Positions 1 through 14,872 of a DNA stretch of 14,872 bases are shown here, piece after piece. Under the pieces are notes generated by a model. That model searched no databases. It worked only from the letters and a program-made list of their open reading frames with translations, and was not told the origin of the DNA. Origin of the DNA: Elainellaceae cyanobacterium (GTDB taxonomy: Bacteria > Cyanobacteriota > Cyanobacteriia > CAZCXK01); NCBI GenBank assembly GCA_051117555.1, contig JBNPEG010000031.1, positions 1-14,872 on the forward strand. Direction: 5' to 3'. How positions within the stretch are numbered: position 1 is the first letter of the stretch; each line of letters begins with the position of its first letter. Position numbers and translations under genes: made by a program.

Positions 1-113
1 ATAAAACGGGTCGAAAAGTTGCTGAAGATTTCAAAGCCAACATGAAGATTGTCTTCGATGAAGTTTTACCACAATGGAATTACACAGCCAAACCAGAATT
101 ACAGATTATTTAA
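1..113 (+). CDS. ISAzo13-family transposase, C-terminal end (runs off the window start)
   Basis: Frame from base 3 reads KTGRKVAEDFKANMKIVFDEVLPQWNYTAKPELQII* (TAA 111-113). This resembles the conserved TGRKV...FD..LP.WNY tail of ISAzo13/Rhodopirellula-type transposases. Not in the ORF track. Confidence 0.8.
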   Translation, partial: KTGRKVAEDFKANMKIVFDEVLPQWNYTAKPELQII

Positions 114-123
114 TTCCCGTTCC
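1..123 (+). mobile_element. Right end of an ISAzo13-like insertion sequence
   Basis: The transposase stop lies in the putative terminal repeat (attatttaattcccgttcc, ending 123), followed by TAA (124-126), a plausible 3-bp target. The neighbouring gene loses its family-like sequence at this point. Confidence 0.65.
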
Positions 124-487
124 TAATCGGATGAAACGCCGCGCCGAATGAAAGGGCCGAGAGCATGGAAAGTTGAATCGTCCCGACTTGCATAAAAAAC
201 AAGAAGACTGCCAACCCAGCCAGACTGCAAATTGTTTTTGGGAATCGTCCCATTAGCGCCGCCGAAAACAAAACTATCGACAGAAACCCAACGACACGGG
301 AGAACTGGATATGTGTTGCCCACCAGGATGGGTCGATAAATACTGACATGCCTACGGTGAAAACCTGAATCAACAAACAGGCTACGAGCAGCCAAGTCCC
401 GATCAAAAATGGAAGCCTGAATGACTTTTTGCCAAACGAAACTGAACCACTTGAGGCAGTGGTTTTGGACATGGATTGAATATTCAT
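110..487 (-). CDS. DUF6220-like membrane protein, probably 3'-truncated by the IS
   Basis: Hydrophobic helices and motifs CLLIQVFTVGMSVF.DP.WW..H and AAFHP. It ends abruptly (HPI-RNGN*) using IS-derived codons where a further TM helix would be expected. Confidence 0.65.
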   Translation of the reverse strand: MNIQSMSKTTASSGSVSFGKKSFRLPFLIGTWLLVACLLIQVFTVGMSVFIDPSWWATHIQFSRVVGFLSIVLFSAALMGRFPKTICSLAGLAVFLFFMQVGTIQLSMLSALSFGAAFHPIRNGN

Positions 488-847: not shown

Positions 848-1300
848 CTACGGAAGAATGCCGTCTTTTTGTAATTGCTTCTGGAGCGTTTTCGGCAGGC
901 TCTTAATGTCGCAATGCCTCGGAGAACTACCCTCATAGCGCCAGGACTGAATTTCACCAGAGCGATCGAACTCGACATCAATCTCACAGAAATCACGATC
1001 AACAACCGTGTTGCCTCCGCTAATTATCGTAGTTGTATCGCCCTGATCGTTCTCAAACTCATTCACAGTGGTTGGCTGATTAAACTCCCGTTCTCGATCC
1101 GTTCTGTAAGAATAGATTGTGTTTCCATTGGGTAATGTAAGCGTTGTCGTGGGTGTACCATATCTGCGAACAAACTCATCGATATCCCGACCAATCCAAC
1201 TGTTCATTGTGCTATTCAATTGTTCTCTCGCTCGTTGATCGTCGCACCCGAACAAGCTCACGCTTGCTAAAATTAGCAGCATCGAAATCCAAGTCTTCAT
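848..1300 (-). CDS. Hypothetical lipoprotein
   Basis: From ATG 1300: MKTWISMLLILASVSLFG-C, a signal peptide with lipobox. AGAGGA RBS upstream. Mature region has SWIGRDIDEFVRRYGTP and two further Cys. Alternative starts are 1306 and 1330. Confidence 0.8.
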   Translation of the reverse strand: MKTWISMLLILASVSLFGCDDQRAREQLNSTMNSWIGRDIDEFVRRYGTPTTTLTLPNGNTIYSYRTDREREFNQPTTVNEFENDQGDTTTIISGGNTVVDRDFCEIDVEFDRSGEIQSWRYEGSSPRHCDIKSLPKTLQKQLQKDGILP

Positions 1301-1430
1301 ATTCATTCCTCTGTGTTGAAAGGTCTTCATGTGCGATCGTTCATTTCAGTCGCAGTAAAGCTAGGTCAAAGGACTCAATCAATTATTCGTGCAGTCGTTT
1401 GAAAGGAGAGTCAATCGCGTTGTGTTATCT

Positions 1431-1493
1431 GAAGTGTACTGAGGTTCAATGCTTGATTTCTTTCAGATTCTTATGGCGGTTTGTAAGATTCTT
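1431..1493 (-). promoter_or_regulatory. Putative AraC-activated promoter, copy 1 (upstream of the lipoprotein)
   Basis: Minus strand: AAGAATCTTACAAA-N7-AAGAATCTGAAAGA (21-bp period), then CTCAGTACACT with a -10-like TACACT. Paralogous to 2733-2794. Confidence 0.55.
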
Positions 1494-1499
1494 AAGGTG

Positions 1500-1846
1500 T
1501 TAGTGAACCTGTTTCGGCGTCATTCCAGTGAATCGCTTGAACTGTTGCGTCAGATGACTTTGACTGGAGAAGCCAACTTGTAGAGCGATGTCTGCGTTGG
1601 CGCAGCCTGTGCGCAGCACGTATTGCTAAATCTGTTTTCGACAGCATTAATTTTGTTTGTTCTACGCGCTGCTGAATCACGTACTGATGGCAGGGCTGAT
1701 TCATCTCCTCAAACCCTTGCTTGATCTTCGTATCTATGTTTTGCCGCGGTAGAGCACAAGTAGACCTGGATAAACTTCGCGATTTGAGGCTCTATAAAGT
1801 AGCTCAATTTGGAACTGATGTTCTGAATCAGTTAATTGGCTAACAT
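1500..1846 (-). pseudogene. AraC-family regulator pseudogene, paralogue of 2799-3155
   Basis: 1500-1692 aligns with the 3' part of the intact AraC (HQYVIQQRVE..KLMLSKTDLAI / ADIALQVGFSSQSHLTQQFKRFTGMTPKQVH*). It is frameshifted by a 25-bp insertion at 1597-1621 and the first HTH is missing. The 5' limit (ATG 1846) is tentative. Confidence 0.85.
1597..1621 (+). mobile_element. 25-bp small dispersed repeat (SDR5-like) inserted in a HIP1-like site
   Basis: gatgtctGCG[ttggcgcagcctgtgcgcagcacgt]ATTGCtaaatc here, versus the empty site gatgtctGCGATCGCaaaatc in the paralogue (2886-2906). Confidence 0.8.
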
Positions 1847-1876
1847 GATTTGTCTACCGATTAAAGTTGATTTGAG

Positions 1877-2638
1877 CTAGAGAGACTGCCCCCCGGAAAC
1901 TTCGATTCTCTGTCCAGTCATCCATCGATTCTCTTCCGACAGCAACAGCGCGATCGCACCTCCAATATCATCGGGTTCACCCACCCGACCTAAAGCCGTT
2001 TGGGACGCGATGTACTTATTGATCTCTGGATTGTCCCGCACGACACTGCCCTCGGTGGCGATCGCTCCAGGAGCGACTACATTCACTGTGATTTGCCGCT
2101 GTCCTAGTTCCTTCGCTAAGGAGCGAGTCAGAACCTCGATCGCGCCCTTCAGACTGGCATAGATCGCTCGTCCTGGGCTTATCGTGCGGGTTAGAAACGA
2201 TGAAAAATTCACGATTCGTCCACCATCTTTGAGCAATGGCAGCAACTTCTGAGTGAGAAAGAAGACACCCTTGAAATTAACGTTGAATATTCGATCAAAT
2301 TCTTCCTCTGTTGTTTCTGCAAACAGTGAACCGCCACTAATTCCAGCGTTATTGATGAGGAAATCAAATTGCTCGATACCCCAAGTGTTTTGCAGGGCTT
2401 GCTTGACTTGTATCACAAACGCATCAAGGGTTTCGATGCTGCCGATATCGAGCTGCAATGCCACTGCTTTATTGCCCATTGCCTCAATTTCAGAAACAAC
2501 GGATTTTGCTTCCGCTTCACCGTTGAGATAGGTTACAATTACGCCCACTCCTTTCTTTGCCACTGCCAAAGCAGTATTCTTTCCCAGTCCTCGACTCGCT
2601 CCTGTCACTAGAGCAATTTTGGGTTTATCTTGTGTCAT
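1877..2638 (-). CDS. SDR family NAD(P)-dependent oxidoreductase
   Basis: TGASRGLG, NNAG, catalytic YASLK (YxxxK), VNVVAPGAIAT, GRVGEPDDIG; 253 aa. Confidence 0.95.
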   Translation of the reverse strand: MTQDKPKIALVTGASRGLGKNTALAVAKKGVGVIVTYLNGEAEAKSVVSEIEAMGNKAVALQLDIGSIETLDAFVIQVKQALQNTWGIEQFDFLINNAGISGGSLFAETTEEEFDRIFNVNFKGVFFLTQKLLPLLKDGGRIVNFSSFLTRTISPGRAIYASLKGAIEVLTRSLAKELGQRQITVNVVAPGAIATEGSVVRDNPEINKYIASQTALGRVGEPDDIGGAIALLLSEENRWMTGQRIEVSGGQSL

Positions 2639-2732
2639 TACCTTATTTCTCCAATAAAAGACAATCAGGTGTACTCCTGGATAGAATTAATGGAGATATT
2701 AATCCTGCCGTTCTATCTATTCTGAGTGTTCT

Positions 2733-2794
2733 AAATGTACTGAGTTCTTGTGCTTGACTTCTTTCAGGTTCTTAGCCTAATTTGTCAGATTCTT
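2733..2794 (-). promoter_or_regulatory. Putative AraC-activated promoter, copy 2 (upstream of the SDR)
   Basis: Minus strand: AAGAATCTGACAAA-N7-AAGAACCTGAAAGA, then CTCAGTACATT, immediately after the AraC stop codon. Confidence 0.55.
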
Positions 2795-2798
2795 CCTG

Positions 2799-3155
2799 TT
2801 AGCGCACCTGCTTCGGTGTCATGCCAGTGAATCGCTTAAACTGTTGCGTCAGATGGCTTTGGCTAGAAAAGCCAACTTGTAGAGCGATGTCTGCGATCGC
2901 AAAATCTGTTTTCGACAGCATCAATTTTGCTCGTTCCACGCGCTGTTGAATTACATACTGGTGTGGAGAAATGTCAATCGCTTGTTTAAATACACTGGCA
3001 AAGTAAGTCGGGCTGAGGTTAAGCGTCTCTGCAAGTTCAGCTAGCGACAAGTCTCGATCGAGGTGAGTCTGAATGTAGTCGAGTACTTGTTGCAACTGGG
3101 TGTGTGTTAAACCTTTGCGCTTGAACTCAATGGTTGGTGTTGGTGTTGTTAGCAT
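2799..3155 (-). CDS. AraC family transcriptional regulator (DNA-binding domain only)
   Basis: LSLAELAETLNLSPTYFASVFKQ and IADIALQVGFSSQSHLTQQFKRFTGMTPKQ form the double HTH; 118 aa, no sensor domain. Confidence 0.93.
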   Translation of the reverse strand: MLTTPTPTIEFKRKGLTHTQLQQVLDYIQTHLDRDLSLAELAETLNLSPTYFASVFKQAIDISPHQYVIQQRVERAKLMLSKTDFAIADIALQVGFSSQSHLTQQFKRFTGMTPKQVR

Positions 3156-3257: not shown

Positions 3258-3815
3258 TTAGTGACTTGCAGCAATCATGGCTGCCATCAACTCCGTCGTG
3301 TTCCAGTGCCCGATATACCGACTTCTATTGATAAACAGGGCTGGGGCAGTCGTTACTCCGCTCTGTATTCCGCCTTCGATATCTTCATTGATGCGATCGA
3401 CATGCACTTGTTTAGACAACTCTTTGAGAAATTGAGGAATGTCAAGTCCTAAATCATTGGCGTACTCGACAAGATAACCGTTCTCCAACCTTTGTTGATG
3501 GTCAAACAAAGTATCGCTCATTAACCAAAACTTTCCTTGGGCGGCGGCGGCAACGGCTGCTTGGGCTGCCCGCTGAGCATGAGGATAAATCTGTGCTTGT
3601 GGAAAATGACGGAAGATGAAGCATAAATAATCTTCTCCAAAAGCAGCACTAAGCTCTCGTTTGATCGCTTTAATCAGCTTGTAAACGTCCGCACTTCTAG
3701 GGCATTGATAGTCTCCGTATATCACCAACACTACCTTGGCACTCAGAATACCTTGAATCCAATCTTGGGTTGAAGGGGATACAAGTAAGAAACTGTAACT
3801 ATGATCGTCATTCAT
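3258..3815 (-). CDS. DsbA/thioredoxin-fold protein with CxxS active site
   Basis: YGDYQCPRS, FRHFP, AAAQGKFW.M.D.LF..Q and GVTTAPALFIN match the Thioredoxin_4/DsbA-like pattern. Confidence 0.9.
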   Translation of the reverse strand: MNDDHSYSFLLVSPSTQDWIQGILSAKVVLVIYGDYQCPRSADVYKLIKAIKRELSAAFGEDYLCFIFRHFPQAQIYPHAQRAAQAAVAAAAQGKFWLMSDTLFDHQQRLENGYLVEYANDLGLDIPQFLKELSKQVHVDRINEDIEGGIQSGVTTAPALFINRSRYIGHWNTTELMAAMIAASH

Positions 3816-3942: not shown

Positions 3943-4314
3943 TTAGCGTAGGTTTCGCCAACGACGGGCAAATTCCCTTAGAACTGAACTAGAGAGTTGC
4001 AATTGCAGCCATTCAAATGCCTCTTTTTGATAAGGGTAGTTCGACGGATCGTAGTAAACGGCTGCATCAGTCAGTTGAATGGGGGCATTGACTCGACGAA
4101 GGGCTTGCCAAGTTTGAGGGCCAACGATGCCATCTGCAACAAGTCCATTCCGCTGTTGAAACTGAACCACTGCGGCACGAGTCGCATTGCCAAAAATTCC
4201 ATCGACTGCAATGTTGATTCCTTTCGCATTCAACAATCGTTGTAGCTCAGTGACAGCAGCACCAGAATCGCCTTGGCGTAGCATTGGGTCTGTAGCTGTG
4301 GAAGTAGAGGTCAT
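3943..4314 (-). CDS. Peptidoglycan-binding domain protein (PG_binding_1-like)
   Basis: LRQGDSGAAVTELQRLL...VDGIFGNATRAAVVQFQQRNGLVADGIVGPQTWQAL, followed by a short C-terminal helical module. No signal peptide. Confidence 0.92.
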   Translation of the reverse strand: MTSTSTATDPMLRQGDSGAAVTELQRLLNAKGINIAVDGIFGNATRAAVVQFQQRNGLVADGIVGPQTWQALRRVNAPIQLTDAAVYYDPSNYPYQKEAFEWLQLQLSSSVLREFARRWRNLR

Positions 4315-4540: not shown

Positions 4541-4721
4541 CAATTTACTTACTCAATCCATTGACTGAATCTTTGTTTGCATACATTCAATGTAGGAGAT
4601 CGCTTTCAAGCTGTCGCCTACAGCAAGTTAAATCTTTTACAGTGCAAATTGATAGATTAACCATGCCATCGCGGAGTAGAAGGCTGGCTCTAACTTAAGT
4701 TAGAATCCGAATTTGATCGAA
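4541..4721 (-). repeat. Left copy of the ~180-bp inverted repeat (partner 12887-13064)
   Basis: Reverse complement of 12887-13064. I count 5 mismatches over the inner ~116 bp; the outer ~65 bp is more diverged. Confidence 0.95.
4689..4704. promoter_or_regulatory. Perfect 16-bp palindrome TCTAACTTAAGTTAGA, candidate response-regulator operator
   Basis: Self-complementary, compatible with a 7-2-7 geometry, identical at 12904-12919, and next to a NarL/LuxR regulator gene. Confidence 0.6.
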
Positions 4722-4729
4722 AGTACATC

Positions 4730-5377
4730 CTACAAACTGACAATGCCGCGTTTAACGGCAACAATCACCGCTTGGGTGCGATCGCCCACATCTAACTTAT
4801 TCAAAATCCGATTGACATGGGATTTGACGGTGCCCTCACCAATACTCAAAGCAGTCGCAATATCAGCGTTACTCATCCCCTGTGCGAGTGAACGGAGTAC
4901 CGCCAGTTCTCGTTCACTCAGTTCTGGATTGCTGAGCCGCTGTACCAACTTTGCTCCCACATCGGGCGGAATGTACTTCTGCCCCCGATGAACAGTACGA
5001 ATCGCATTCAGAAGCTCGTCAGGTTCAGTTTCTTTCAACAGGTATCCTTTTGCGCCTGCCTGCAATCCTCGATAGATATCTTCGTCACTATCATACGTGG
5101 TCAATACAATAATCCGAGCCGATTTAGCCGTCGCACAAATTGCACCAATGGCGGCAACTCCTTCCACTTCCGGCATTCGCAGATCCATGAGCGTGACATC
5201 CGGTTGGTGTTCCCTAAATAGAGCGATCGCCTGTTCCCCATTTTCGGCTTGGGCAATTACCTGCATATCTGGGTCACGGTTAATAATCGTGGCTAATCCT
5301 TGCCGAAAAATGGCATGGTCGTCCGCAATCAGAACCCGAATTGGGGGTGTGGGGTGTGGGGTGTGGGGTGTAGTCAT
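4730..5377 (-). CDS. NarL/LuxR family two-component response regulator
   Basis: REC domain (IRVLIADDH, VTLMDLRMP, VLTTYD, GYLLK) plus LuxR HTH (LSERELAVL...GMSNADIA...TVKSHVNRILNKL). Confidence 0.97.
   Translation of the reverse strand: MTTPHTPHPTPPIRVLIADDHAIFRQGLATIINRDPDMQVIAQAENGEQAIALFREHQPDVTLMDLRMPEVEGVAAIGAICATAKSARIIVLTTYDSDEDIYRGLQAGAKGYLLKETEPDELLNAIRTVHRGQKYIPPDVGAKLVQRLSNPELSERELAVLRSLAQGMSNADIATALSIGEGTVKSHVNRILNKLDVGDRTQAVIVAVKRGIVSL
5344..5371. repeat. STRR-like heptamer (GGGGTGT)x4 in the regulator N-terminus
   Basis: Four exact units, translated as TPHTPHPTP. Confidence 0.9.
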
Positions 5378-5542
5378 TATCCCTCAGCAATGTTGGCAGG
5401 CACAGAAACACAGGCTCTACGAATCTGTGAAGTTAGTCCATAGATTTCATGCTTTGGTAGTGCTTCTGTTGCTTGATAAACTTCCTTTGCCAATCGCATT
5501 GACACTCTCCAAACCTCCAAATCACGATAACTCTCTAACTTA

Positions 5543-5570
5543 CCCACACCCCACACCCCAATTACACCCC
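5543..5570. repeat. STRR-like heptamer (CCCCACA) remnants at the kinase stop codon
   Basis: cccacaccccacaccccaattacacccc overlaps the last kinase codons. Confidence 0.75.
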
Positions 5571-8500
5571 AACGACTACGATAATCTCCGTTCCCTGCCC
5601 AGGCTGACTCCTAATCTTGAGTTGTGATCCGATGCGCTCTGCCCGTTCGCTCATGCCGAGTAAGCCAAATCCCTCAGAGGCTGGAATACTGCCAACTCCA
5701 AAGCCCTGTCCATTGTCTCTCACGCGCAGGCAAACCTGATCGTGATTGTAGACTAGCCCCACTCGAATTTCGTCAGCATTAGCGTGTCTAATTGCGTTGG
5801 TTAATGCCTCCTGCCCAATCCGCAGTAGGTTACTCTCAACTTCAGTGGGTAGAGCATACACTGCACCCTCGATCTCATAGTGCAAAGTGGTATCCATTGC
5901 GGCAGTTCTGATTTGAGCGACGAGACGATGTAGAGCGCTCTGTAAACTGCCCTCCTCCAAAAGCTGAGGACGGAGTGCGACGACTGATCGCCGCGCTTCA
6001 GTCAGTCCAGTTCGCGCCAATTCTTTGATCAGGCCTAGATGTGCCTGAGCTGCGTCTACATCATCCGTTAGTACCTGATTTACAGCTCCGACCTGAGCCA
6101 GAATGCCTGTAAACGACTGCGCGAGTGTATCGTGAATTTCACGTGCCATGCGGTTGCGCTCCTCTAAAATTGAGGCTTCTTCTGCTTGCTTCTGCGCCGT
6201 AATATCTCGCACCAGCCAAATCACCTGATCGTGGCTGATTGGGGCAATGCGAGCCGAAAACCACATTTCTCGTCCATTTAGAAACGCACCATACTCGACC
6301 GTGAGGATTTGTCGGGTTTTCAGTACCTGCTGAATATAACCTAGAAACTCATCAGCTTCTTCCCTTCCGAGTTGATGCATTGTTTTACCAATCATCTCCT
6401 CAAAGGGGTGCCATAGCAGATCTGGGTCCAGTACCATTATTTCAAGAAATCGCCCTTCAGCAGAGAATACAAACAATGGATCGGGAATTGCCTCAATTAG
6501 ATTCCGTAGCTTTGACTCTGAGACTTGTAGGGCTGCTTCTGCTTGTTTGCGATCGTCGATATCCGTAACAACTCCCAACGCTCGGATGGGTTCACCGAAT
6601 TCGTTCCAGGCAACAACGTTGCCAACAGCAAAAAACCATTTCCACTGACCATCCTGAGTACGATGGCGATACTCTGCTTGATAGCTGGAAACTTCTCCAG
6701 TAAGACTAGCATGGTAAGCTGCAAGCACTGATTCTCTATCGTTAGGATGCAAACTCTCAATCCACCTAGATATGGTTACATGAAATGTTGCTGGATCGTA
6801 GCCCAGCATTAAAGGGTATCCTGGGCTAACCACAACTTCTTCAGTTTTGATGTTGATATCGTAGAGTCCCTGATTTGACGCGGTTAATGCCAAGCGCAGT
6901 CGTTCTTCACTTATTTGTAGAGCTGCTTCTGCTTGCTTGCGATCACTAATATCCGCAAGCACCCCTTCGATGTAGTCGTCGTCTGCACTCAGATAAGAAG
7001 AGAAAAGTCCCCAAAACACTGTCCCATATCGTTTTCGCATCTGTGCTTCATAGCTTCGCACTTCCCCATCCCGCTTCATCACCTCAATGCCTTGTTGGCG
7101 ATCGCTGGGATTGACCCAATAGCCTATAGTGTGTTCAATTCCAATAATCTCTTGGGGTGAATCAAAGCCAAATAGATCGGCAAAGCGTTGATTGGCGTCG
7201 AGAATTAATCCATCACAGGTGCGGGTTCGGTAGATGCCAACCTGCGAGTTTTCAAAGATAGTTCGGAACTTAGCTTCACTGCGTTGTAAAGCCTCTTCTA
7301 CTTGTTTACGCTGGGTGGTGTCACTGCCCACCGATAAGATTTCAACGACATCTCCCTGGTCATTGAAGATGGCTTGATTCGACCAGGCAATCCAAACCCG
7401 TCTACCGTCTCGACAAAGATTTTCATTCTCGGTTTGCAAGTAGGCTTGAGGTAAGGAAGCTTCAAACTTATGAAACAGATCGTGAACAAACGGCTTGAGA
7501 TTACGTCCAGATGTTTCGATTTCTGGAACGATTGTTTCAAGTAGAGTACGCCCTAGAATCTGATCTTCCTCATAGCCAAAAAAGCTCAGTCCATAGTCAT
7601 TCATGTATTGAATTCGTCCTTGCCTATCTGTGCGCAGGATGATTGAATTCGCGGTTTTTAGCAGGTTGCGATAATTCGCTTCGCTTTGTCGTAACGCAGC
7701 AGTTCGTTCTGCGACCTGTTGCTCTAAAGTGTAGTTGTAGTCGGCTAGGAGCTTCTCGGCTTGTTTACGCTCTGTAATGTCCTGAAAGGTAGCTATCGCA
7801 TGAGTGATATTGCCCTGTTGATCAAAAACTGGTGTTCCCCGTGCCTCAAGTAAAATTGTGGCATGATCTCGATGAATTTCTATATCCTCAGTCCTGATGC
7901 ATTCGCCTTTTAATGCCCGCACAATAGGCAAGCTCTCCGCTGGATAGATTTTATCCGTTCCCGCTACATAAAGCTGATAAGCCTCTGAGATCTGCTCCGG
8001 TGCTATGGAAGTATCAGTTTCTTGACCGGTGAGCTGATTGCTGCATTGGTTGGTATAGTAAGGGCGACCCGTCGCATCCACGATCCCAATTCCCACCGGA
8101 ATCGCTTCGAGGAACTGGGTGATCTTGCTTTCCTTAGCCTGCAGTTCTGAGTAAAGGTTGGCATTTTCGATGGCGATCGCGGCTTGAGTCGATAATAGCT
8201 GCAAGACCTGCGATCGCTCTGGTGTAAATACTCCAGCTGCTAACCGATTTTCTAAATACAATACACCGACCAGCTTGGCTTGATTCAGCAGCGGCAAACA
8301 GAAAACAGATTGAGGCTGGTTCTGTTGAATGTATGGCTCATTAATAAAAGCACCTTCACGAGTCGCATCATTTAAGGTGACGGGCTTCAGAGTCCGAATC
8401 ACATATTGAATGATTGATTCTGGCAATTGACCGGCAATTGGAATAGACTGTAACACCTGAGTCGCACAAGCATTCTCAACGGCATTGAGTTCACAAGCCG

Positions 8501-11500
8501 CTTCAATCGACCATTCTCCTGAGTTTTCTAAAATCAGATATCCCGTTTGTGCGCCAGCATTCTCAATTAAAGTTTGCATCAGCGATTGCAGTAGTTGCTT
8601 CAGTTCAATTTCACGAGAAATCGCCTGTGAAGCTTTCATCACTGCTGCTAAATCGAAAGCAGTATGGAAGGGATTAGAGATAGTTTCAGCAGTAATAGGA
8701 ATTGATGCGGAAGCGGCTCTAGACGACTGAGAAAAGAACTGTGGATAGCGAGTTTCTAAGTCTTTGACTTTAGCGATCGCGCCCCAGCGATCGTAGCAAT
8801 AGTGCGCCTCTTTCATGTAGGTCTGAGCGATCTTTTCCCGGCCTCGCGCTAGATAATGTTTTGCCGCTAATTCATAAGCTAATGCTTCTTCCTGAATATA
8901 CTCATTTTCAGCAGCACCTGCGATCGCTCGTTCATAAAGTTCCTCAGCCTCAAAGAATTGCCCTGAGACTCGCGCTTTCTCTGCTTCGACTAAATAAAAT
9001 TTATGTAGATAATTCATTGGGGCATGTTCTGCCCATTTCTGCATTTTTTCTTGGTTGGTGTTAACACAACTTAGCCAAGCTTCTTCTTCAGAGTTTGAAG
9101 CATCGAGCGGTAGGCTCAAAAGCGCTAGAGAATGATAGAAACAGAATATAGGTAAAATCTTTATTGCTGTCACTTCTTCAAAATGTTTCCTTGCCAAAAT
9201 AGCAGTCTGTACAGCTTGATGATATTTTCCAAATAGATAACACAGTATAACTTTGTGCAGATATAGCATTTGAATTGCAGTTCCATCTTTAACTGCAAGG
9301 GCGTGTGGTAATGCCTGCTCTTCATTACACACCCGACCAACTAAGCGACTGGGATTCTCAGACCTATCTAACAAATTAAGAATGGTCTGCGACACTATTG
9401 CAATCCAAGTCGAGGGGCTTTCCCGTCTGATTTGATCAACCGCTTTGCTGTAGGTTGCTGTTTTTTGTTCCAGTTGGGTGAGTTCCTCACCGACGAAAAA
9501 CGAGTTATAGCACACGTCATATGCAGCATAACCAGCGGTTTCAAAGTCTCCGGTTTCCAATCCTTCCTGATAAGCCTCAACCAGCAGTGGTATCGTCTCC
9601 TTAAGATGTACTTTCCATTGCATAACGTGGTCACTAAATAACTGTAATGCTTTAGCCTTGCCTTTTTTAGTATTCAATCGTTCTGCCAAGCTAAGAGCCA
9701 ATTGACCAAATTTATAGCCGAGTTCAATGTCTTGAACAACTCCACATAGAACAAACCCGTAGCCAGCATAATACAGTGGTGACCAGATAGCATTACCGTA
9801 GTTGATTGATAAATTTACCGCTTTGCAAGCAATCAGTATCACCAGTGCTGGTGATACTATGAATGCAGCAGCCCCTATATTCGCTAGGATTGACATTGCT
9901 GCTAGCGGTTCTGGTGCAATCATCTCTGGTAAATTAACCAAGTCTTCAATTTTTTGTTCAGCTAATCGTGCAGCCGTTTCCTCCAATCCGCCTCGAACAT
10001 CTAACTCACTTGGATTTTCTGGTAAGATTACTCCCAGGAGCTTCAACACTTCCAAACCAATTTTGAGTGCTTCTTTCAGGTTGCCCTGTGACAAATATCT
10101 TTGAATGCTGTTATCGTAAACTTGCACTTTGTCAACCACTGTCTTAGCGCGATCGAGTACCACTTCTACTAATTGTTCCATCTCATCAAAGCAACCCTGG
10201 AGATACGCCGCTTCTGCTGCTTCTGAGTACAGCGCCAAGGTGAGGTCATACTCACTCTGCCAACTCTCTGAATTGAGGAGTTTAAGCCCTGTAGTGAAAT
10301 ACTTAAAAGCTGCTTCATAAGCCGTTGCTGCCTTTGCTTTCTGACCTGCTATTAAATTCAATCTGGCAATTTCAGTTCGTTCTGATCGAGCAGTGACTAG
10401 CTCAAGTCCTTGATTGAGATGATCGATGATTTCAAACAACCGATCGGATCGTTGCTCTGGTGAAGTTTTTTTGAGCAAATTGCCACCGATTTGGAGATGA
10501 ACCACTTGTTTGCACGACTCATCAATTAGGGCATAAGCCGCTTGCTGCACGCGATCGTGCAGAAACTTATACTCTTGAACTAACAAATCTTCGTTCAAGT
10601 CAGACAGAGGTTGAATTAATCCCGCTTGTATTGCTGCTAGTAGATCCTGGAAAATTGCTTTCGGTGATTTTTCACAAACGATTCCTTCGGAGTTGCGCTC
10701 TGCGCTAAACGCCAGCGTTTCTAAATCAAACTCAGACCCAACACAAGCAGCGATGGAGAGAATTTGCTGTGTTGCTTCCGGCAATTTCTGCAACTGACGT
10801 AGCAGCAACTCCACCACATTATCGGTGATATCTTGAGCTTCAATCTCAGCTAGGTTCCACTGCCACCCCCCTTTACTTCCCCCCTTACCAAGGGGAGGGG
10901 GGTCAAAGGTTAACAGGTTTTCGCTATGCAGCAGCTTCAAAAACTCACCAATAAAGAAAGGGTTGCCCTCGGTTTTACGCAACACGACTTGGGCTAAAGA
11001 ACGAACGGTATCAGAATTGTGATGTAATGTCTCAGCTATCAGTTGAGTCAACGGTTCCAGCGTTAAGGGGGTCAGGATGATTTCCTGAAGCGCTGCTCCC
11101 TGGTTTCGCATGCTCTCTAGTGTTAAGACCAACGGATGCGTTGGAGTCAGGTTGTTATCTCGGTAGGCTCCGATCAAAAACAGATACTGGATTTGCTCAT
11201 CAAGTAAGATGAGTTCGATTAACTTCAACGTCGCAGAATCGATCCACTGTAGATCGTCTAAGAAAATGACCAGGGGATGCTCTTTTGCACAAAACGCCCG
11301 CACAAACCTTTGAAACGTGAGATTGAAGCGATTCTGTGCCTCAGTTGCTCCAACTTCGGGTATAGGCGACTGCTTGCCAATGATTAACTCAACTTCGGGG
11401 ATGACATCAATGATGATTTGTCCGTTGCTGCCCAGAGCAGTGAGCAGGCGCGATCGCCACACTTCCACTTGCTCCTCCGGTTCGCTCAAGAGTTGCTGCA

Positions 11501-12761
11501 CTAACTTTTGCAAGGCATTCACAATGGCGCTGTAGGGAATGTTGCGTCCAAATTGGTCAAATTTGCCAGAGATAAAATAGCCTTGGTTTGCTGTGACCGG
11601 TTTATGGAGTTCCTGCACCAATGCCGTTTTGCCGATGCCAGCATAACCAGAGACCAGCATCATTTCGCTGCATGAAGGTGTGGGGTGTGGGGTGTGGGAT
11701 GTGGAGTGTTTCTCCTGATCCCCGATTTCCGATTCCCGACTCCCCGTCACTTTGTCAAACGCCATAAATAATGCTTCGATCTCCGCTTCTCGCCCATACA
11801 GTTTTTGAGGAATGTGGAACTGCTCAGAAACATCTTGCAGTCCCAATGGCATAGGTTCTATTTGACCCATTTCTGCCAGTTGTTGGGCACAGCGCTCTAG
11901 ATCTGCTTTGATGCCCCAAGCACTTTGATAGCGATCCTCCGCATTCTTTGCCATCAGTTTCATCACAATGTCGGAAACTGCTTTAGGAATTGTATGCCTG
12001 GTAGATGATGAACCATCCGTCCCCACACCCCACACCCCACACCCCACACCCTCAACCTCATGGGGAGGAGTCGGCGGTCTGGCAATGTGGCAGTGGACTA
12101 GCTCTAGGAGATCTTCTGTGGGAAACGGTAATTGTCCCGTCAACAGTTCGTAGAAGGTTACGCCCAGTGAATAAAAGTCGGTGCGATAGTCGAGCATCCG
12201 GTTCATTCGTCCGGTTTGCTCTGGCGACAAATAGGTGGGGGTTCCTTCTAGAAGATGGAGACTTTTGAATGTGGGGTTGGTGCGACTGAAGCGAGTGGCG
12301 TTGCCAAAATCAATGATTTTGACAACGCCAGTCTTCGGATTAAAGACAATGTTGCCAGGATTAATATCTTTATGAATGACATGAGCCGCATGAATTTTGC
12401 CTAGAGTATCAGTAATGGCGATCGCCATATTCAAAAAAACCGACAGCGGCATGGGACAGAAGTTTAATTGTTGCCGCATCCAGCATTCTAAAGACTCTCC
12501 ACCAAAGTCTTCCAAAAGAATAACCAGCGTGCGCTGGTAGTCTTGCTGGCTGTATGCCTTGACTACGCCTTCAATGTTGAGAAAGCGAGTGATTTCATAC
12601 TCCTGCCGATAGCGAGTTAAATCCTGAGGAGAGGGATAATCCTGCTTGAGAACTTTGGCAATCACTGCACAGTCATCTTGCTCTCTGATGCCTCGATACA
12701 CCAAAGAAGCTAAGCTCTCATAAATTTTGCTGTGGATAGTAATTCTAGGCAGGGTAATCAT
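5562..12761 (-). CDS. Hybrid Ser/Thr kinase - AAA ATPase - GAF - 5xPAS - HisKA_3/HATPase sensor histidine kinase
   Basis: Kinase motifs HKDINPGN, DFG, YLSPEQTGRMNR. Walker A GYAGIGKT and Walker B LVIFLDDLQW. A helical TPR-like region and GAF (CLPLLNQAKLVGVLYLEN). Five PAS/PAC units, each ending D.(T/S/D)..KQ.E. H-box EERNRMAREIHDTLAQ, QEALTNAIRHA, DNGQGF, GFGLLGMSERA. ATG 12761 is preferred over TTG 12818. Confidence 0.96.
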   Translation of the reverse strand: MITLPRITIHSKIYESLASLVYRGIREQDDCAVIAKVLKQDYPSPQDLTRYRQEYEITRFLNIEGVVKAYSQQDYQRTLVILLEDFGGESLECWMRQQLNFCPMPLSVFLNMAIAITDTLGKIHAAHVIHKDINPGNIVFNPKTGVVKIIDFGNATRFSRTNPTFKSLHLLEGTPTYLSPEQTGRMNRMLDYRTDFYSLGVTFYELLTGQLPFPTEDLLELVHCHIARPPTPPHEVEGVGCGVWGVGTDGSSSTRHTIPKAVSDIVMKLMAKNAEDRYQSAWGIKADLERCAQQLAEMGQIEPMPLGLQDVSEQFHIPQKLYGREAEIEALFMAFDKVTGSRESEIGDQEKHSTSHTPHPTPSCSEMMLVSGYAGIGKTALVQELHKPVTANQGYFISGKFDQFGRNIPYSAIVNALQKLVQQLLSEPEEQVEVWRSRLLTALGSNGQIIIDVIPEVELIIGKQSPIPEVGATEAQNRFNLTFQRFVRAFCAKEHPLVIFLDDLQWIDSATLKLIELILLDEQIQYLFLIGAYRDNNLTPTHPLVLTLESMRNQGAALQEIILTPLTLEPLTQLIAETLHHNSDTVRSLAQVVLRKTEGNPFFIGEFLKLLHSENLLTFDPPPLGKGGSKGGWQWNLAEIEAQDITDNVVELLLRQLQKLPEATQQILSIAACVGSEFDLETLAFSAERNSEGIVCEKSPKAIFQDLLAAIQAGLIQPLSDLNEDLLVQEYKFLHDRVQQAAYALIDESCKQVVHLQIGGNLLKKTSPEQRSDRLFEIIDHLNQGLELVTARSERTEIARLNLIAGQKAKAATAYEAAFKYFTTGLKLLNSESWQSEYDLTLALYSEAAEAAYLQGCFDEMEQLVEVVLDRAKTVVDKVQVYDNSIQRYLSQGNLKEALKIGLEVLKLLGVILPENPSELDVRGGLEETAARLAEQKIEDLVNLPEMIAPEPLAAMSILANIGAAAFIVSPALVILIACKAVNLSINYGNAIWSPLYYAGYGFVLCGVVQDIELGYKFGQLALSLAERLNTKKGKAKALQLFSDHVMQWKVHLKETIPLLVEAYQEGLETGDFETAGYAAYDVCYNSFFVGEELTQLEQKTATYSKAVDQIRRESPSTWIAIVSQTILNLLDRSENPSRLVGRVCNEEQALPHALAVKDGTAIQMLYLHKVILCYLFGKYHQAVQTAILARKHFEEVTAIKILPIFCFYHSLALLSLPLDASNSEEEAWLSCVNTNQEKMQKWAEHAPMNYLHKFYLVEAEKARVSGQFFEAEELYERAIAGAAENEYIQEEALAYELAAKHYLARGREKIAQTYMKEAHYCYDRWGAIAKVKDLETRYPQFFSQSSRAASASIPITAETISNPFHTAFDLAAVMKASQAISREIELKQLLQSLMQTLIENAGAQTGYLILENSGEWSIEAACELNAVENACATQVLQSIPIAGQLPESIIQYVIRTLKPVTLNDATREGAFINEPYIQQNQPQSVFCLPLLNQAKLVGVLYLENRLAAGVFTPERSQVLQLLSTQAAIAIENANLYSELQAKESKITQFLEAIPVGIGIVDATGRPYYTNQCSNQLTGQETDTSIAPEQISEAYQLYVAGTDKIYPAESLPIVRALKGECIRTEDIEIHRDHATILLEARGTPVFDQQGNITHAIATFQDITERKQAEKLLADYNYTLEQQVAERTAALRQSEANYRNLLKTANSIILRTDRQGRIQYMNDYGLSFFGYEEDQILGRTLLETIVPEIETSGRNLKPFVHDLFHKFEASLPQAYLQTENENLCRDGRRVWIAWSNQAIFNDQGDVVEILSVGSDTTQRKQVEEALQRSEAKFRTIFENSQVGIYRTRTCDGLILDANQRFADLFGFDSPQEIIGIEHTIGYWVNPSDRQQGIEVMKRDGEVRSYEAQMRKRYGTVFWGLFSSYLSADDDYIEGVLADISDRKQAEAALQISEERLRLALTASNQGLYDINIKTEEVVVSPGYPLMLGYDPATFHVTISRWIESLHPNDRESVLAAYHASLTGEVSSYQAEYRHRTQDGQWKWFFAVGNVVAWNEFGEPIRALGVVTDIDDRKQAEAALQVSESKLRNLIEAIPDPLFVFSAEGRFLEIMVLDPDLLWHPFEEMIGKTMHQLGREEADEFLGYIQQVLKTRQILTVEYGAFLNGREMWFSARIAPISHDQVIWLVRDITAQKQAEEASILEERNRMAREIHDTLAQSFTGILAQVGAVNQVLTDDVDAAQAHLGLIKELARTGLTEARRSVVALRPQLLEEGSLQSALHRLVAQIRTAAMDTTLHYEIEGAVYALPTEVESNLLRIGQEALTNAIRHANADEIRVGLVYNHDQVCLRVRDNGQGFGVGSIPASEGFGLLGMSERAERIGSQLKIRSQPGQGTEIIVVVGV
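10683..10709 (-). mobile_element. 27-bp SDR5-like element inserted in-frame in a HIP1-like site of the kinase
   Basis: Minus strand CTG GCG[TTTAGCGCAGAGCGCAACTCCGAAGGA]ATC GTT. Removing it restores GCGATCGT and the family-typical FDLETLAIVCEKS; the insert adds FSAERNSEG. Confidence 0.75.
10866..10902. repeat. CCCCCCTT-N3-AAGGGG palindromic dispersed repeat inside the kinase
   Basis: ccccccttaccaaggggagggggg hairpin with a flanking C-run, translated as PPPLGKGGSKGG between LLTFD and WQWN. Confidence 0.7.
11677..11747. repeat. Two adjacent STRR-like heptamer arrays (GGTGTGG-type and TCCCGA[CT]-type) just before Walker A
   Basis: ggtgtgg x3 plus degenerate units (11677-11709), and tcctgat ccccgat ttccgat tcccgac (11713-11747). 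Translated GSRESEIGDQEKHSTSHTPHPTP. Confidence 0.85.
12021..12051. repeat. STRR-like heptamer (CCCCACA)x4 in the Ser/Thr kinase domain
   Basis: Four exact units, translated GVGCGVWGVG. Confidence 0.9.
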
Positions 12762-12886
12762 TGAATGCTTCCCCGATGAAGGACTGTCATCCGTTTCCCA
12801 AAGTATATCGCTTGCCAAACTCCAGAATATAAAGCTCCTTGTGTAGGTCCTTATATCTTGACTTGTAATTGCTCAACTCAGTAGCC

Positions 12887-13064
12887 TTCGATCAAATTCG
12901 GATTCTAACTTAAGTTAGAGCTAGCCTTCTACTCCGCGATGGCATGGTTAATCTATCAATTTGCACCGTAAAGAATTTAACTTGCTATAGGCGACAGCTT
13001 GAAGGCGACCCCCTATATTGAACTTGTGCAAACAGTCATGCAAATGGATCGAGCAAGTAAATTG
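12887..13064 (+). repeat. Right copy of the ~180-bp inverted repeat (partner 4541-4721)
   Basis: Reverse complement of 4541-4721. Lies between the divergent kinase and azoR genes. Confidence 0.95.
12904..12919. promoter_or_regulatory. Second copy of the palindrome TCTAACTTAAGTTAGA
   Basis: Identical to 4689-4704. A -10-like TAATCT lies at 12949-12954. Confidence 0.6.
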
Positions 13065-13266
13065 CACGGTTCCATGCTTGAAGGCATGAATATTCAAGGT
13101 GCAACTGGATTAACGCACGCTCAAGCAGCAACGTTGAATTCACAAAAAAGCTCCTACGATGGCTCACGTGTAACGGTTAGCTTTACACACTGTTGGGTCA
13201 GCGCTAATCCGTTGGTTGCTCATTTGTCTCCGCTATATTTTTCACTCACAATCTGAGATTTATCCT

Positions 13267-13884
13267 ATGACCCACATTCTCCATTTAGATGCGAGTCCGC
13301 GTGGCGATCGCTCCATCTCCCGCATGCTCTCCAAAGAGTTCATTAACCAGTGGAAAACCACCCATCCCAACGACACCATCACTTACCGTGATATTGGGCA
13401 TTACCCTGTTCCTTTTGTGAGCGAAGACTGGATCGCGGCTGCATTTACTCCGTCCGATCAACATACACCTGAGTTGGCCGCTGCAATTCAAATTTCTGAC
13501 GAATTGATCGACGAGTTTTTATCCGCTGATCGCTACGTTTTCAGTGTCCCTGTGTATAACTTCAGCATTCCTGTTAACTTCAAAGCTTATCTTGACCAGA
13601 TTGTGCGTGCAGGTCATACCTTTTCTGTTGATGAAACAGGTTACAAGGGACTGGTTCACAACAAGAAAATGACGATCATTATGGCGCAGGGAGGAACCTA
13701 CCCCGAAGGTAGCCCGACCCATGCCTATGATTTACAAACACCTTATCTAAAACTCATTTTTGGGTTTATTGGGATAACGGATATTGAGTTTATCTATGCC
13801 GATAGCTTGAATATGGGGGATGAAGCCCGTGAGCTGGCGATCGCAAATGCTCAGTCTGCCTTAAAAGCTGCGATCGCACATTAG
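13267..13884 (+). CDS. azoR: FMN-dependent NADH-azoreductase (AzoR/AcpD, flavodoxin-2 fold)
   Basis: ILHLDASPRGDRSISR, SDELIDEFLSAD, PVYNFSIP..FKAYLDQIVRAG.TF, YLKLIFGFIGITD. ATG at 13267. Confidence 0.93.
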   Translation: MTHILHLDASPRGDRSISRMLSKEFINQWKTTHPNDTITYRDIGHYPVPFVSEDWIAAAFTPSDQHTPELAAAIQISDELIDEFLSADRYVFSVPVYNFSIPVNFKAYLDQIVRAGHTFSVDETGYKGLVHNKKMTIIMAQGGTYPEGSPTHAYDLQTPYLKLIFGFIGITDIEFIYADSLNMGDEARELAIANAQSALKAAIAH

Positions 13885-13930
13885 TACTCATCAAGTGCCT
13901 TGCAACCAAGTTTTTCTGAGGTCATCTCTC

Positions 13931-14150
13931 ATGCTAGAGCCCGGGGTAGTGGGTACAGAGGCAGAAACTCACCAGGTAACCGCCATTATTTCTCACCTCA
14001 TTCGAACTGGACGTGAGCAGGGATATGAGGAGTGGTTGCACGGGATTGCTTAGAACGTTGTTGGATTCAGGCGTAACAGTTGTCCTGCTGACCTACGTGA
14101 TTATGCCGCGCCTCACCCAACTCTTTCGCACATGGCTGTATCCCATTTGA
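13931..14150 (+). pseudogene. Antibiotic biosynthesis monooxygenase (ABM)-like membrane protein, internally deleted
   Basis: ATG 13931 gives MLEPG...VTAIISHLIRTGREQGYEEWLHGIA* (TAG 14051). A different frame gives the family C-terminus SGVTVVLLTYVIMPRLTQLFRTWLYPI* (TGA 14148-14150). The middle is absent. Confidence 0.8.
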
Positions 14151-14186
14151 CCAAGTACATATCTTGCACATTCACAGGAATCTTCC

Positions 14187-14462
14187 ATGTCTTGTCAACG
14201 CCTGAACGAACTGACGCTAGAGACTATGATTTCAAAAGCCAATTACCCGGTATTCCGCTGTGAAGAATGCCTTCGGGTTGGCGACCGCTGGGTTCACTTA
14301 AGAATTTGTCAAACCTGCGGCAAAATGCTGTGTTGCGACTCGTCTAAAAATCAACATGCTCGCCGTCACTATGAAGAAAGTGGACATACGGTGATTAGTT
14401 CAGCCGAATTGGGAGAACAATGGCTGTGGTGTTTTGCCGATGAACAACAGAAGACCTATTGA
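14187..14462 (+). CDS. UBP-type zinc finger domain protein
   Basis: CEECL..GDRWVHLRICQTCGKMLCCDSSKNQHARRH....GH.VI.S.E.GE.W.WC; 91 aa. Confidence 0.92.
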   Translation: MSCQRLNELTLETMISKANYPVFRCEECLRVGDRWVHLRICQTCGKMLCCDSSKNQHARRHYEESGHTVISSAELGEQWLWCFADEQQKTY

Positions 14463-14494
14463 TCACGCGCCCCTTTTCTACTCACGAGGAAACC

Positions 14495-14872
14495 ATGATG
14501 TCAAATCAGCCTGCCCTAACAGATACTTGGCCGAGTTTACCCCTGGACGCATGGCAGGATACCTATGCCACCTTGCACATGTGGACTCAAATCATCGGCA
14601 AAATCCGATTTTCTGGGGAAGTTTTGATTTAGCAGTGACTCGCTTTTCGGGGCGATCGGCTCCGGAGCATCCGGGAGGGGTGCCGAATCTACCGGATGTA
14701 GTGGCAAAGGAAGCCTACTCCCAGGAAGTTAGTAGCGCCGGATTCTGGCCCGGAGTCGGATTATCATACCCAGCGTTTTTTTCCTATGCGTACCCAGAAC
14801 CCGATGGGTTTAAGCAGGCTGAGGTTCGTCCCGATGCTGCATTTTACAATAAGGAACTGGGTGAATTTATTT
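14495..14872 (+). pseudogene. DUF5996-like protein, internally deleted and frameshifted (runs off the window end)
   Basis: GAGGA RBS and ATG 14495 give WPSLPLDAWQDTYATLHMWTQIIGKIR. From 14611 another frame gives FWGSFDLAVTRFSGRSAPEHPGGVPNLPD...EAYSQEVSSAGFWPG...AFFSYAYPEP. These two blocks are normally far apart. Confidence 0.82.

Follow-up and report, generated by a model that had tools for sequence, protein, structure and literature searches.

At the center of the window, by which we mean the whole 14,872-nucleotide stretch analyzed here, the genes of a response regulator and a histidine kinase lie side by side on the minus strand between two non-coding repeats in inverted orientation (Table 1). 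The window is the entire contig C6 of a 6.06-Mb assembly. Between the repeats we found the NarL-type regulator, the Ser/Thr kinase-AAA-GAF-PAS-His kinase, and nothing else, and the family-matched ORFs lie all on the minus strand in the left arm and all on the plus strand in the right arm, as the first-pass annotation had stated. The kinase ORF spans 5562–12818 (minus strand), with an ATG at 12764. In the PDB the regulator matches best to chains labelled VraR, and we take the top match to be enterococcal LiaR; for the named NCBIfam regulator families listed, it does not reach the cut-off. Tandem repeats of a heptamer (GGGGTGT / CCCCACA) occur at 5344–5371, 11677–11709, 12021–12051, and 5543–5560, and within the regulator and kinase reading frames heptamer repeats encode PHTPHPT- and GVGCGVWG-like inserts.

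Table 1. Annotated features of the window.
Feature	Position	Strand	Remark
DsbA-like protein	3258-3815	-	proximal left arm; ancestral downstream gene of the element
Peptidoglycan-binding protein	3943-4314	-	proximal left arm
Left copy of the element	4541..4728	-	original-position copy, directly 3' of the regulator stop codon
Predicted promoter, left copy	4589..4617	-	-35 GCGACA (4612-4617), 17-nt spacer, -10 TACATT (4589-4594)
Boxes 2-4, left copy	4665-4680, 4641-4656, 4617-4632	-	degenerate; 24-bp steps
Box 1, left copy	4689..4704	-	perfect 16-bp palindrome TCTAACTTAAGTTAGA; predicted primary regulator site
Box 0, left copy	4713-4728	-	
NarL/LuxR-family response regulator	4730..5377	-	receiver + GerE HTH; predicted box binder
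Dual Ser/Thr kinase-AAA-GAF-PAS-HisKA_3 histidine kinase	5562..12764	-	~2400 aa; cbSTKIII-type architecture
TATACT	12802..12807	-	conserved; candidate kinase -10, back to back with the right copy
Right copy of the element	12887..13078	+	read as an inserted duplicate; element positions 1-192
Box 1 palindrome, right copy	12904..12919	+	
Boxes 2-4, right copy	12928-12943, 12952-12967, 12976-12991	+	degenerate
Predicted promoter, right copy	12991..13019	+	-35 GCGACA, 17 nt, -10 TATATT
TGAA junction (13079-13082) and stub (13080-13142)	13079..13142	+	final codons of an NB-ARC-WD40 gene interrupted by the insertion
AzoR-like flavodoxin-fold reductase	13267-13884	+	right arm
zf-UBP protein	14187-14462	+	right arm
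DUF5996 protein	within arm 13267..14872	+	right arm; cut by the contig end

The distal left arm carries an AraC remnant and an SDR gene, both on the minus strand. Because window positions 1300–3099 are 92% identical to contig C224, these distal genes need not belong to a regulon of the central pair, and the description of the locus as self-contained was too strong: they form a module duplicated elsewhere in the genome. The AraC-remnant/SDR block as a whole (742–1127 and 1300–3099) is 92–96% identical to C224, and the window contains two versions, 75% identical (1432–1689 and 2733–2963), of the AraC 3' end plus the flank behind it. An ORF at 848–1330 (minus strand) encodes 150–160 aa with a lipoprotein-like N-terminus, judged by eye, and matches no Pfam family. 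At the contig ends, window positions 2–126 match the ends of seven other contigs at 99–100%, a multi-copy element that is likely an IS, and positions 14746–14872 form a 127-nt overlap with the end of contig C92.

BLASTN aligned 4541–4721 (minus strand) with 12887–13064 (plus strand) at 88.4% identity over 181 columns (E 8e-61), which bears out the inverted repeat, and the near-identity reported for its inner part also holds, as the first 116 nt match at 111/116. A repeat search of the window placed about 150 bp in inverted orientation at 92%. We number the element from 12887 in the right copy and from 4721 in the left copy (position 1). The homologous unit is about 198 bp long (positions -6 to +192); the window's right copy is without its first few bases, and the left copy, which begins 8 nt after the regulator stop codon, diverges past position 181. 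No third copy was found in the 6.06-Mb assembly by BLASTN or by a profile HMM built from related copies. The repeat ends 227 and 203 nt ahead of the next start codons, and the first downstream ORF is co-oriented with the element in 133 of 151 copies. Of the two copies, said to head outward transcription units, only the right one is divergent from the kinase; the left arm is co-directional with the minus-strand kinase and regulator and could also be read through from their operon. Terminator-like hairpins before AzoR (13196–13217, plus strand) and after DsbA (3220–3199, minus strand; at chance level) could cut either transcript short.

The element carries box 1, a perfect palindrome at element positions 18–33, which is accompanied by degenerate boxes at 24-bp steps. 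Among the periods of 16–40 bp tested, 24 bp scored best both in the near set of 69 copies (8.1 vs 7.0 for the next) and in a distant set (6.2 vs 5.3), while a period of 21 lay at background in both. When offsets were scored against the palindrome in the 69 copies, +72 and +24 ranked second and third of 180, -24 ranked eighth, and +48 ranked twenty-first. Boxes 0, 2, and 3 are weak, box 3 ranking 21/180 in the near set and 43/180 in the first deep set. Downstream of the boxes, GCGACA and TATATT, separated by 17 nt, occupy element positions 105–110 and 128–133. This pair is the sole promoter-like site around the right copy, where one is expected by chance, and its counterpart in the left copy scores below the promoter-scan threshold. 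From the position of the -10, we infer that transcription starts near 4582 (left) and 13026 (right), at about element position 140; given that start, the center of box 4 would lie at -42.5 of the right copy.

The pattern scan for the element, which returned at least 122 stretches, fixed the palindrome bases; its box-1 conservation was therefore set aside, and conservation was measured instead on loci fetched with the regulator protein. In these regulator-selected copies heterozygosity was 0.06 in box 1 and 0.04 in the -10 (positions 128–133), vs 0.19–0.33 in the spacers. For reference, 47 regulator genes gave 0.30 at 86 four-fold sites and 0.04 at codon positions 1/2. The palindrome and the -10 are thus conserved to the same degree as codon positions 1/2. 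Among 27 kinase-side copies, which were not selected by box pattern and include the window's own, the values were 0.025 for box 1, 0.0 for the -35, and 0.035 for the -10, against 0.06–0.16 in the spacers and 0.105 in the leader; the WD40-tail value among kinase-side copies may be inflated by replaced, non-homologous tails and was given no weight. The low variation of box 1, -35, and -10 in these copies is modest evidence that the new copy works.

The element also extends to more distant systems. At 24 of 30 loci with regulators of 66–84% identity, we found a profile match near the regulator, usually ahead of a DsbA-like gene, and the placement after the regulator and before a DsbA-like gene holds in relatives down to about 68% regulator identity. 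A strict pattern anchored 20 of 32 such loci (the 30 plus L205 and L206) and missed 12, and the -35/-10 conservation of this anchored set is partly built in by the anchoring pattern. C6 and G11 of the box are invariant in all 20 anchored loci, and changes at the outer arm positions of the box are symmetric (45, against 35.3 ± 2.7 in shuffles that ignore relatedness). The near regulators carry an EGTVKSH helix in 47/47 cases, together with T3/A14 boxes; the distant regulators carry ESTVK (ESTIK in two), with C3/G14 in 14/20, and in their VTHI/VTRI group positions 4/13 have changed too. In an alignment of the regulator with the structure, the Gly/Ser helix position falls on LiaR Lys174; the bases that Lys174 contacts lie three steps outward from the C/G read by Lys177 (PMC4482077), and this spacing leads to box positions 3/14. 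Across few independent events, these correspondences are suggestive of a box sequence that tracks the recognition helix of the adjacent regulator, and the pairing of Gly/Ser with T/C may reflect a single evolutionary event.

Among 301 genomes of the class, 34 carry the element, scattered over families, and it is absent from the three closest relatives searched (one of them 61% complete). A regulator of at least 93% identity is present in 29/301 genomes, and the element accompanies it in 29/29 (27 in the first search and two in a deeper one). Seven other genomes are element-positive: four hold broken pieces of a regulator of at least 93% identity, two (G058 and G163) hold the kinase-side copy with no regulator found, and one (G247) has a marginal 41-bp element match only. 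There are two copies in the genome studied here (G000) and one to four elsewhere. A recurring layout places a zf-UBP/DUF5996 arm, an element, the kinase, the regulator, a second element, and a DsbA arm in succession, and an outward-pointing pair of copies 4.6–10.1 kb apart surrounds the regulator at 30 distinct loci. Six plasmids bear the element, three of which are predicted to be conjugative. Because the regulators are 93–99% identical across families, the whole appears to be a horizontally moving island. The first-pass view of a duplicated promoter/leader module tied to the regulator is thus upheld by conservation, box architecture, co-oriented genes, and co-occurrence, its promoter role being a prediction.

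The islands vary in content. The kinase is often reduced to its GAF/PAS/His-kinase half with a variable number of PAS domains (L036, L070, L079, L096, L158, and others), alongside regulators that are 93–99% identical. Extra direct copies of the element occur in the DsbA arm of some islands (L046, L048, L074, L086, L087, L090; L049, L080, L092, L099), with 1–5 kb of variable cargo between them, and several of these follow a duplicated 3' piece of the regulator gene; the promoter seems to have been re-duplicated while the DsbA arm grew. A distant system with a 79% identical regulator, L209, has three diverged element copies and two tandem regulators, suggesting independent multiplication of the promoter.

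The origin of the right copy can be read from its junctions. In the window this copy runs straight into the WD40 stub, and the WD40 head is lost; on plasmid pOSC7112.02, a WD40 ORF enters the kinase-side copy, and the final codons of that ORF follow on the far side. Kinase-side copies share common junctions, with TGAA on both sides of an insert of about 198 bp that matches the regulator-DsbA spacer. An empty site is found in L079, where the regulator, kinase, pirin, hydrolase, an intact 1220-aa NB-ARC-WD40 gene, and AzoR are present and the element lies only behind the regulator. Likewise, L272, L250, and L269 have an uninterrupted NB-ARC-WD40 gene with a single TGAA, followed in L272 by zf-UBP and DUF5996. 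In a tree of 153 copies, whose bootstrap had not converged and whose model is violated by recombination, 46 of 47 kinase-side copies form one clade (100/98) nested among the regulator-side copies. On this comparative evidence the kinase-side copy arose by insertion into an NB-ARC-WD40 gene, at the 3' end, and one insertion event behind all kinase-side copies is the simplest reading. As the donor has TGA at its right end, the TGAA duplication may be microhomology. The locus was called mirror-symmetric, which overstates its order: a pair of copies does face outward, as an old original and a later insertion, and the arms hold unrelated cargo, different from genome to genome.

The WD40 head has been deleted to differing extents among loci, with the TATACT ahead of the kinase spared each time. 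Several distinct WD40-remnant deletions end just upstream of TATACT, leaving the right copy 95–125 bp from the kinase gene. The right copy lies next to the candidate kinase promoter (window 12764–12887), and kinase autoregulation through it is possible. In L079 (6722–10384), the NB-ARC-WD40 protein has a helix-turn-helix-like N-terminal segment, judged by eye, and its gene is divergent from the pirin and hydrolase genes; this protein may have been an earlier regulator of the AzoR/zf-UBP/DUF5996 arm.

The copies also exchange sequence. Fifteen of 106 regulator-side copies fall in the kinase-side clade, and the kinase-side copy L038 falls outside it; judged by such allele patterns, the copies recombine and are mosaics of each other's alleles. 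The window's left copy carries kinase-side alleles at 10/11 diagnostic sites over positions 8–111 and the alleles of five arm-sharing relatives at 9/9 sites over positions 118–151, which marks it as a chimera whose breakpoint lies within element positions 111–118 and accounts for the 96% inner vs 76% outer identity of the window pair. Its similarity to its own partner (0.955) does not exceed its similarity to the best-matching other kinase-side copy (0.982), so that the exchange may have taken place within this genome or between islands. The within-locus excess of identity is small (0.868 vs 0.856, p 0.005, from 21 non-independent pairs and class means that leave out four truncated regulator-side copies and one kinase-side copy) and is absent for positions 117–156 (p 0.76).

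We consider it quite probable that one control element is present twice, likely as a promoter that the NarL-type regulator between the copies activates, and that an NB-ARC-WD40 gene received the kinase-side copy in its 3' end, by which the AzoR/zf-UBP/DUF5996 arm was likely captured. The first-pass annotation had also proposed that the repeats could let the core invert, and a switch of this kind would draw on the roughly 150 bp that match at 92% in inverted orientation and on the allele mosaics, which indicate that copies recombine. We regard it as very improbable. With a flipped core, the WD40 tail would be expected next to the regulator end, or the DsbA leader next to the WD40/kinase side. 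None of the 28 informative loci is flipped: among the 30 paired loci, 21 show the window orientation at both arms and 7 at one arm, and 2 are uninformative, in counts where some genomes may occur in two collections. Among 201 distinct copies, 41 of which have other or cut upstream flanks, leaving 160 classifiable with 0 flipped, the WD40 tail follows 0/121 regulator-headed copies and the DsbA leader 0/39 WD40/kinase-headed copies. No recombinase was found among the 12 window ORFs scanned, and an inverted core would still leave both promoters pointing outward. Among the best 15 of 55 matches from the DNA runs X2, X6, X12, and X21 there is a single joint between opposite strands, a soil-metagenome contig that connects 4677 with 13045; this joint lies wholly inside the repeat, as it would for a mosaic allele. 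A MITE or a structured non-coding RNA is just as improbable and largely refuted. Many copies in unrelated contexts would mark a MITE, and we found two per 6-Mb genome here, one to four elsewhere, and no terminal inverted repeat (the ends are not complementary, and none is among the 25 longest inverted pairs listed); what speaks for one is the target-site duplication, TGAA flanking kinase-side copies and occurring once in empty sites, and the extra direct copies in some islands. As for an RNA, the left copy folds with z -2.56, with which the right copy (z -0.78) is inconsistent, the consensus fold of 36 copies reaches -0.32 kcal/mol and consists of 4 pairs that fall within the palindrome, and a gathering-threshold scan gave 0 Rfam matches. 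The RNA runs X15–X17 and X19 hold contigs of relatives with no strand or start information and are evidence neither way. Two further candidates were dropped: an attC-like palindrome by inspection, with only 4 nt between the arms, and a coding function, the sole right-copy ORF (85 aa, 12999–13256) owing its recognizable part to the WD40 stub.

The two remaining alternatives keep a promoter and dispute how it is used. It is unlikely that the regulator acts as a repressor on the operator boxes or that another trans-acting factor binds them. Repression sits poorly with a weak predicted -35 and with a box 4 that would sit at the activator position reported for DevR (PMC3177182), and the one-base overlap of box 4 with that -35 is the point in its favor, as it is for another factor. 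Candidates for the latter exist in the six other NarL-like regulators of the genome (33–44% identity), but box sequence varies in step with the recognition helix of the regulator beside it, and no other site in the genome lies within one mismatch of the 14-bp box core. We think it quite unlikely that the left copy alone is functional, the right one being a recent and neutral insertion whose likeness to it gene conversion maintains. The kinase-side copies are indeed young (91% alike over positions 33–156), AzoR, zf-UBP, and DUF5996 were in place downstream of the WD40 gene while it was still intact, a terminator-like hairpin stands ahead of AzoR, and two genomes keep the copy with no detectable regulator. 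Neutrality is at odds with box 1, -35, and -10 varying less than the spacers and leader in kinase-side copies, with the repeated deletion of the WD40 head around a retained element core, and with a first downstream ORF that is co-oriented in 35/38 of them.

Under the preferred reading, of a regulator-activated promoter present twice, the kinase would phosphorylate the regulator (at Asp65, by position), whose dimers would bind box 1 first and then fill the weaker boxes cooperatively. The dimer at box 4 (about -42.5) would recruit RNA polymerase to the weak -35, and both copies would fire outward together, while recombination from copy to copy would keep them alike without inverting the core. 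Judging by the cargo, the signal may be redox or electrophile stress. It is conceivable, if rather doubtful, that the locus is a self-propagating regulon cassette, in which a five-box, 24-bp operator array, implying a regulator filament geometry unlike the 21-bp DevR arrangement, is copied again and again inside a horizontally spreading island and recruits new cargo with each copy; that the kinase-side copy also drives the kinase as a positive-feedback switch; and that the regulator family embodies a natural residue-to-base code for NarL-type helices. Such a switch, if real, would account for the repeated deletions that bring the right copy within 95–125 bp of the kinase gene.

Several parts of this arrangement have counterparts in known systems. 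As in tandem-box promoters of the NarL type, there is a linked regulator, a palindromic primary box with symmetric changes, and adjacent weak boxes. Promoters of the mycobacterial DevR (DosR) regulon combine a strong box with up to three weak tandem boxes, one at -42.5 (PMC3177182), and the likeness extends to a NarL-family regulator and a palindromic box with inner ACT half-sites; box 4 would take the -42.5 position given the start predicted from the -10. DevR boxes measure 18 bp and are spaced at 21 bp in helical phase, whereas the boxes predicted here are 16 bp long, number up to five, and recur every 24 bp, out of phase; the sensor here is a 2400-aa dual kinase. The LiaR operator skeleton T(X)4C(X)4G(X)4A (PMC4482077) fits box 1, and the Lys177 equivalent is invariant along with C6/G11. 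In contrast to LiaR/VraR, the regulator here has Gly at the Lys174 equivalent and Ser at the Thr178 equivalent, and the locus has no LiaF partner or cell-envelope operon.

The putative mobile promoters of PMC3575422 are likewise highly similar non-coding pairs upstream of unrelated genes, in distant taxa and on plasmids. That survey sought at least 80% identity over at least 50 nt upstream of non-paralogous genes, which the pair here exceeds (88.4% over 181 nt), and a match within -150 to -50 of start codons, a filter that would miss this element. Here, unlike there, the donor, the empty target site, a 4-bp duplication, and a cognate regulator are all identifiable, and the copy stays in one island, inverted around its own regulator. 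The kinase belongs with the cbSTKIII/HstK-type dual protein kinases, for which the part of PMC2176072 available gives no output regulon, and differs from the class described there in its HisKA_3 domain, directly linked NarL-type regulator, and predicted target promoter. Full-text literature searching returned no description of the element. Its parts, namely tandem-box NarL promoters, promoter reuse, and gene conversion, are known kinds, and the element likely resembles the DevR and LiaR promoters and the promoter reuse reported in PMC3575422. Set beside these systems, the locus offers a specific predicted DNA site at which a cyanobacterial dual Ser/Thr-His kinase system would deliver its output, a bacterial promoter capture whose donor, empty site, junctions, and later decay are all readable from genomes, and, through helix/box covariation, a sharp specificity-swap prediction.
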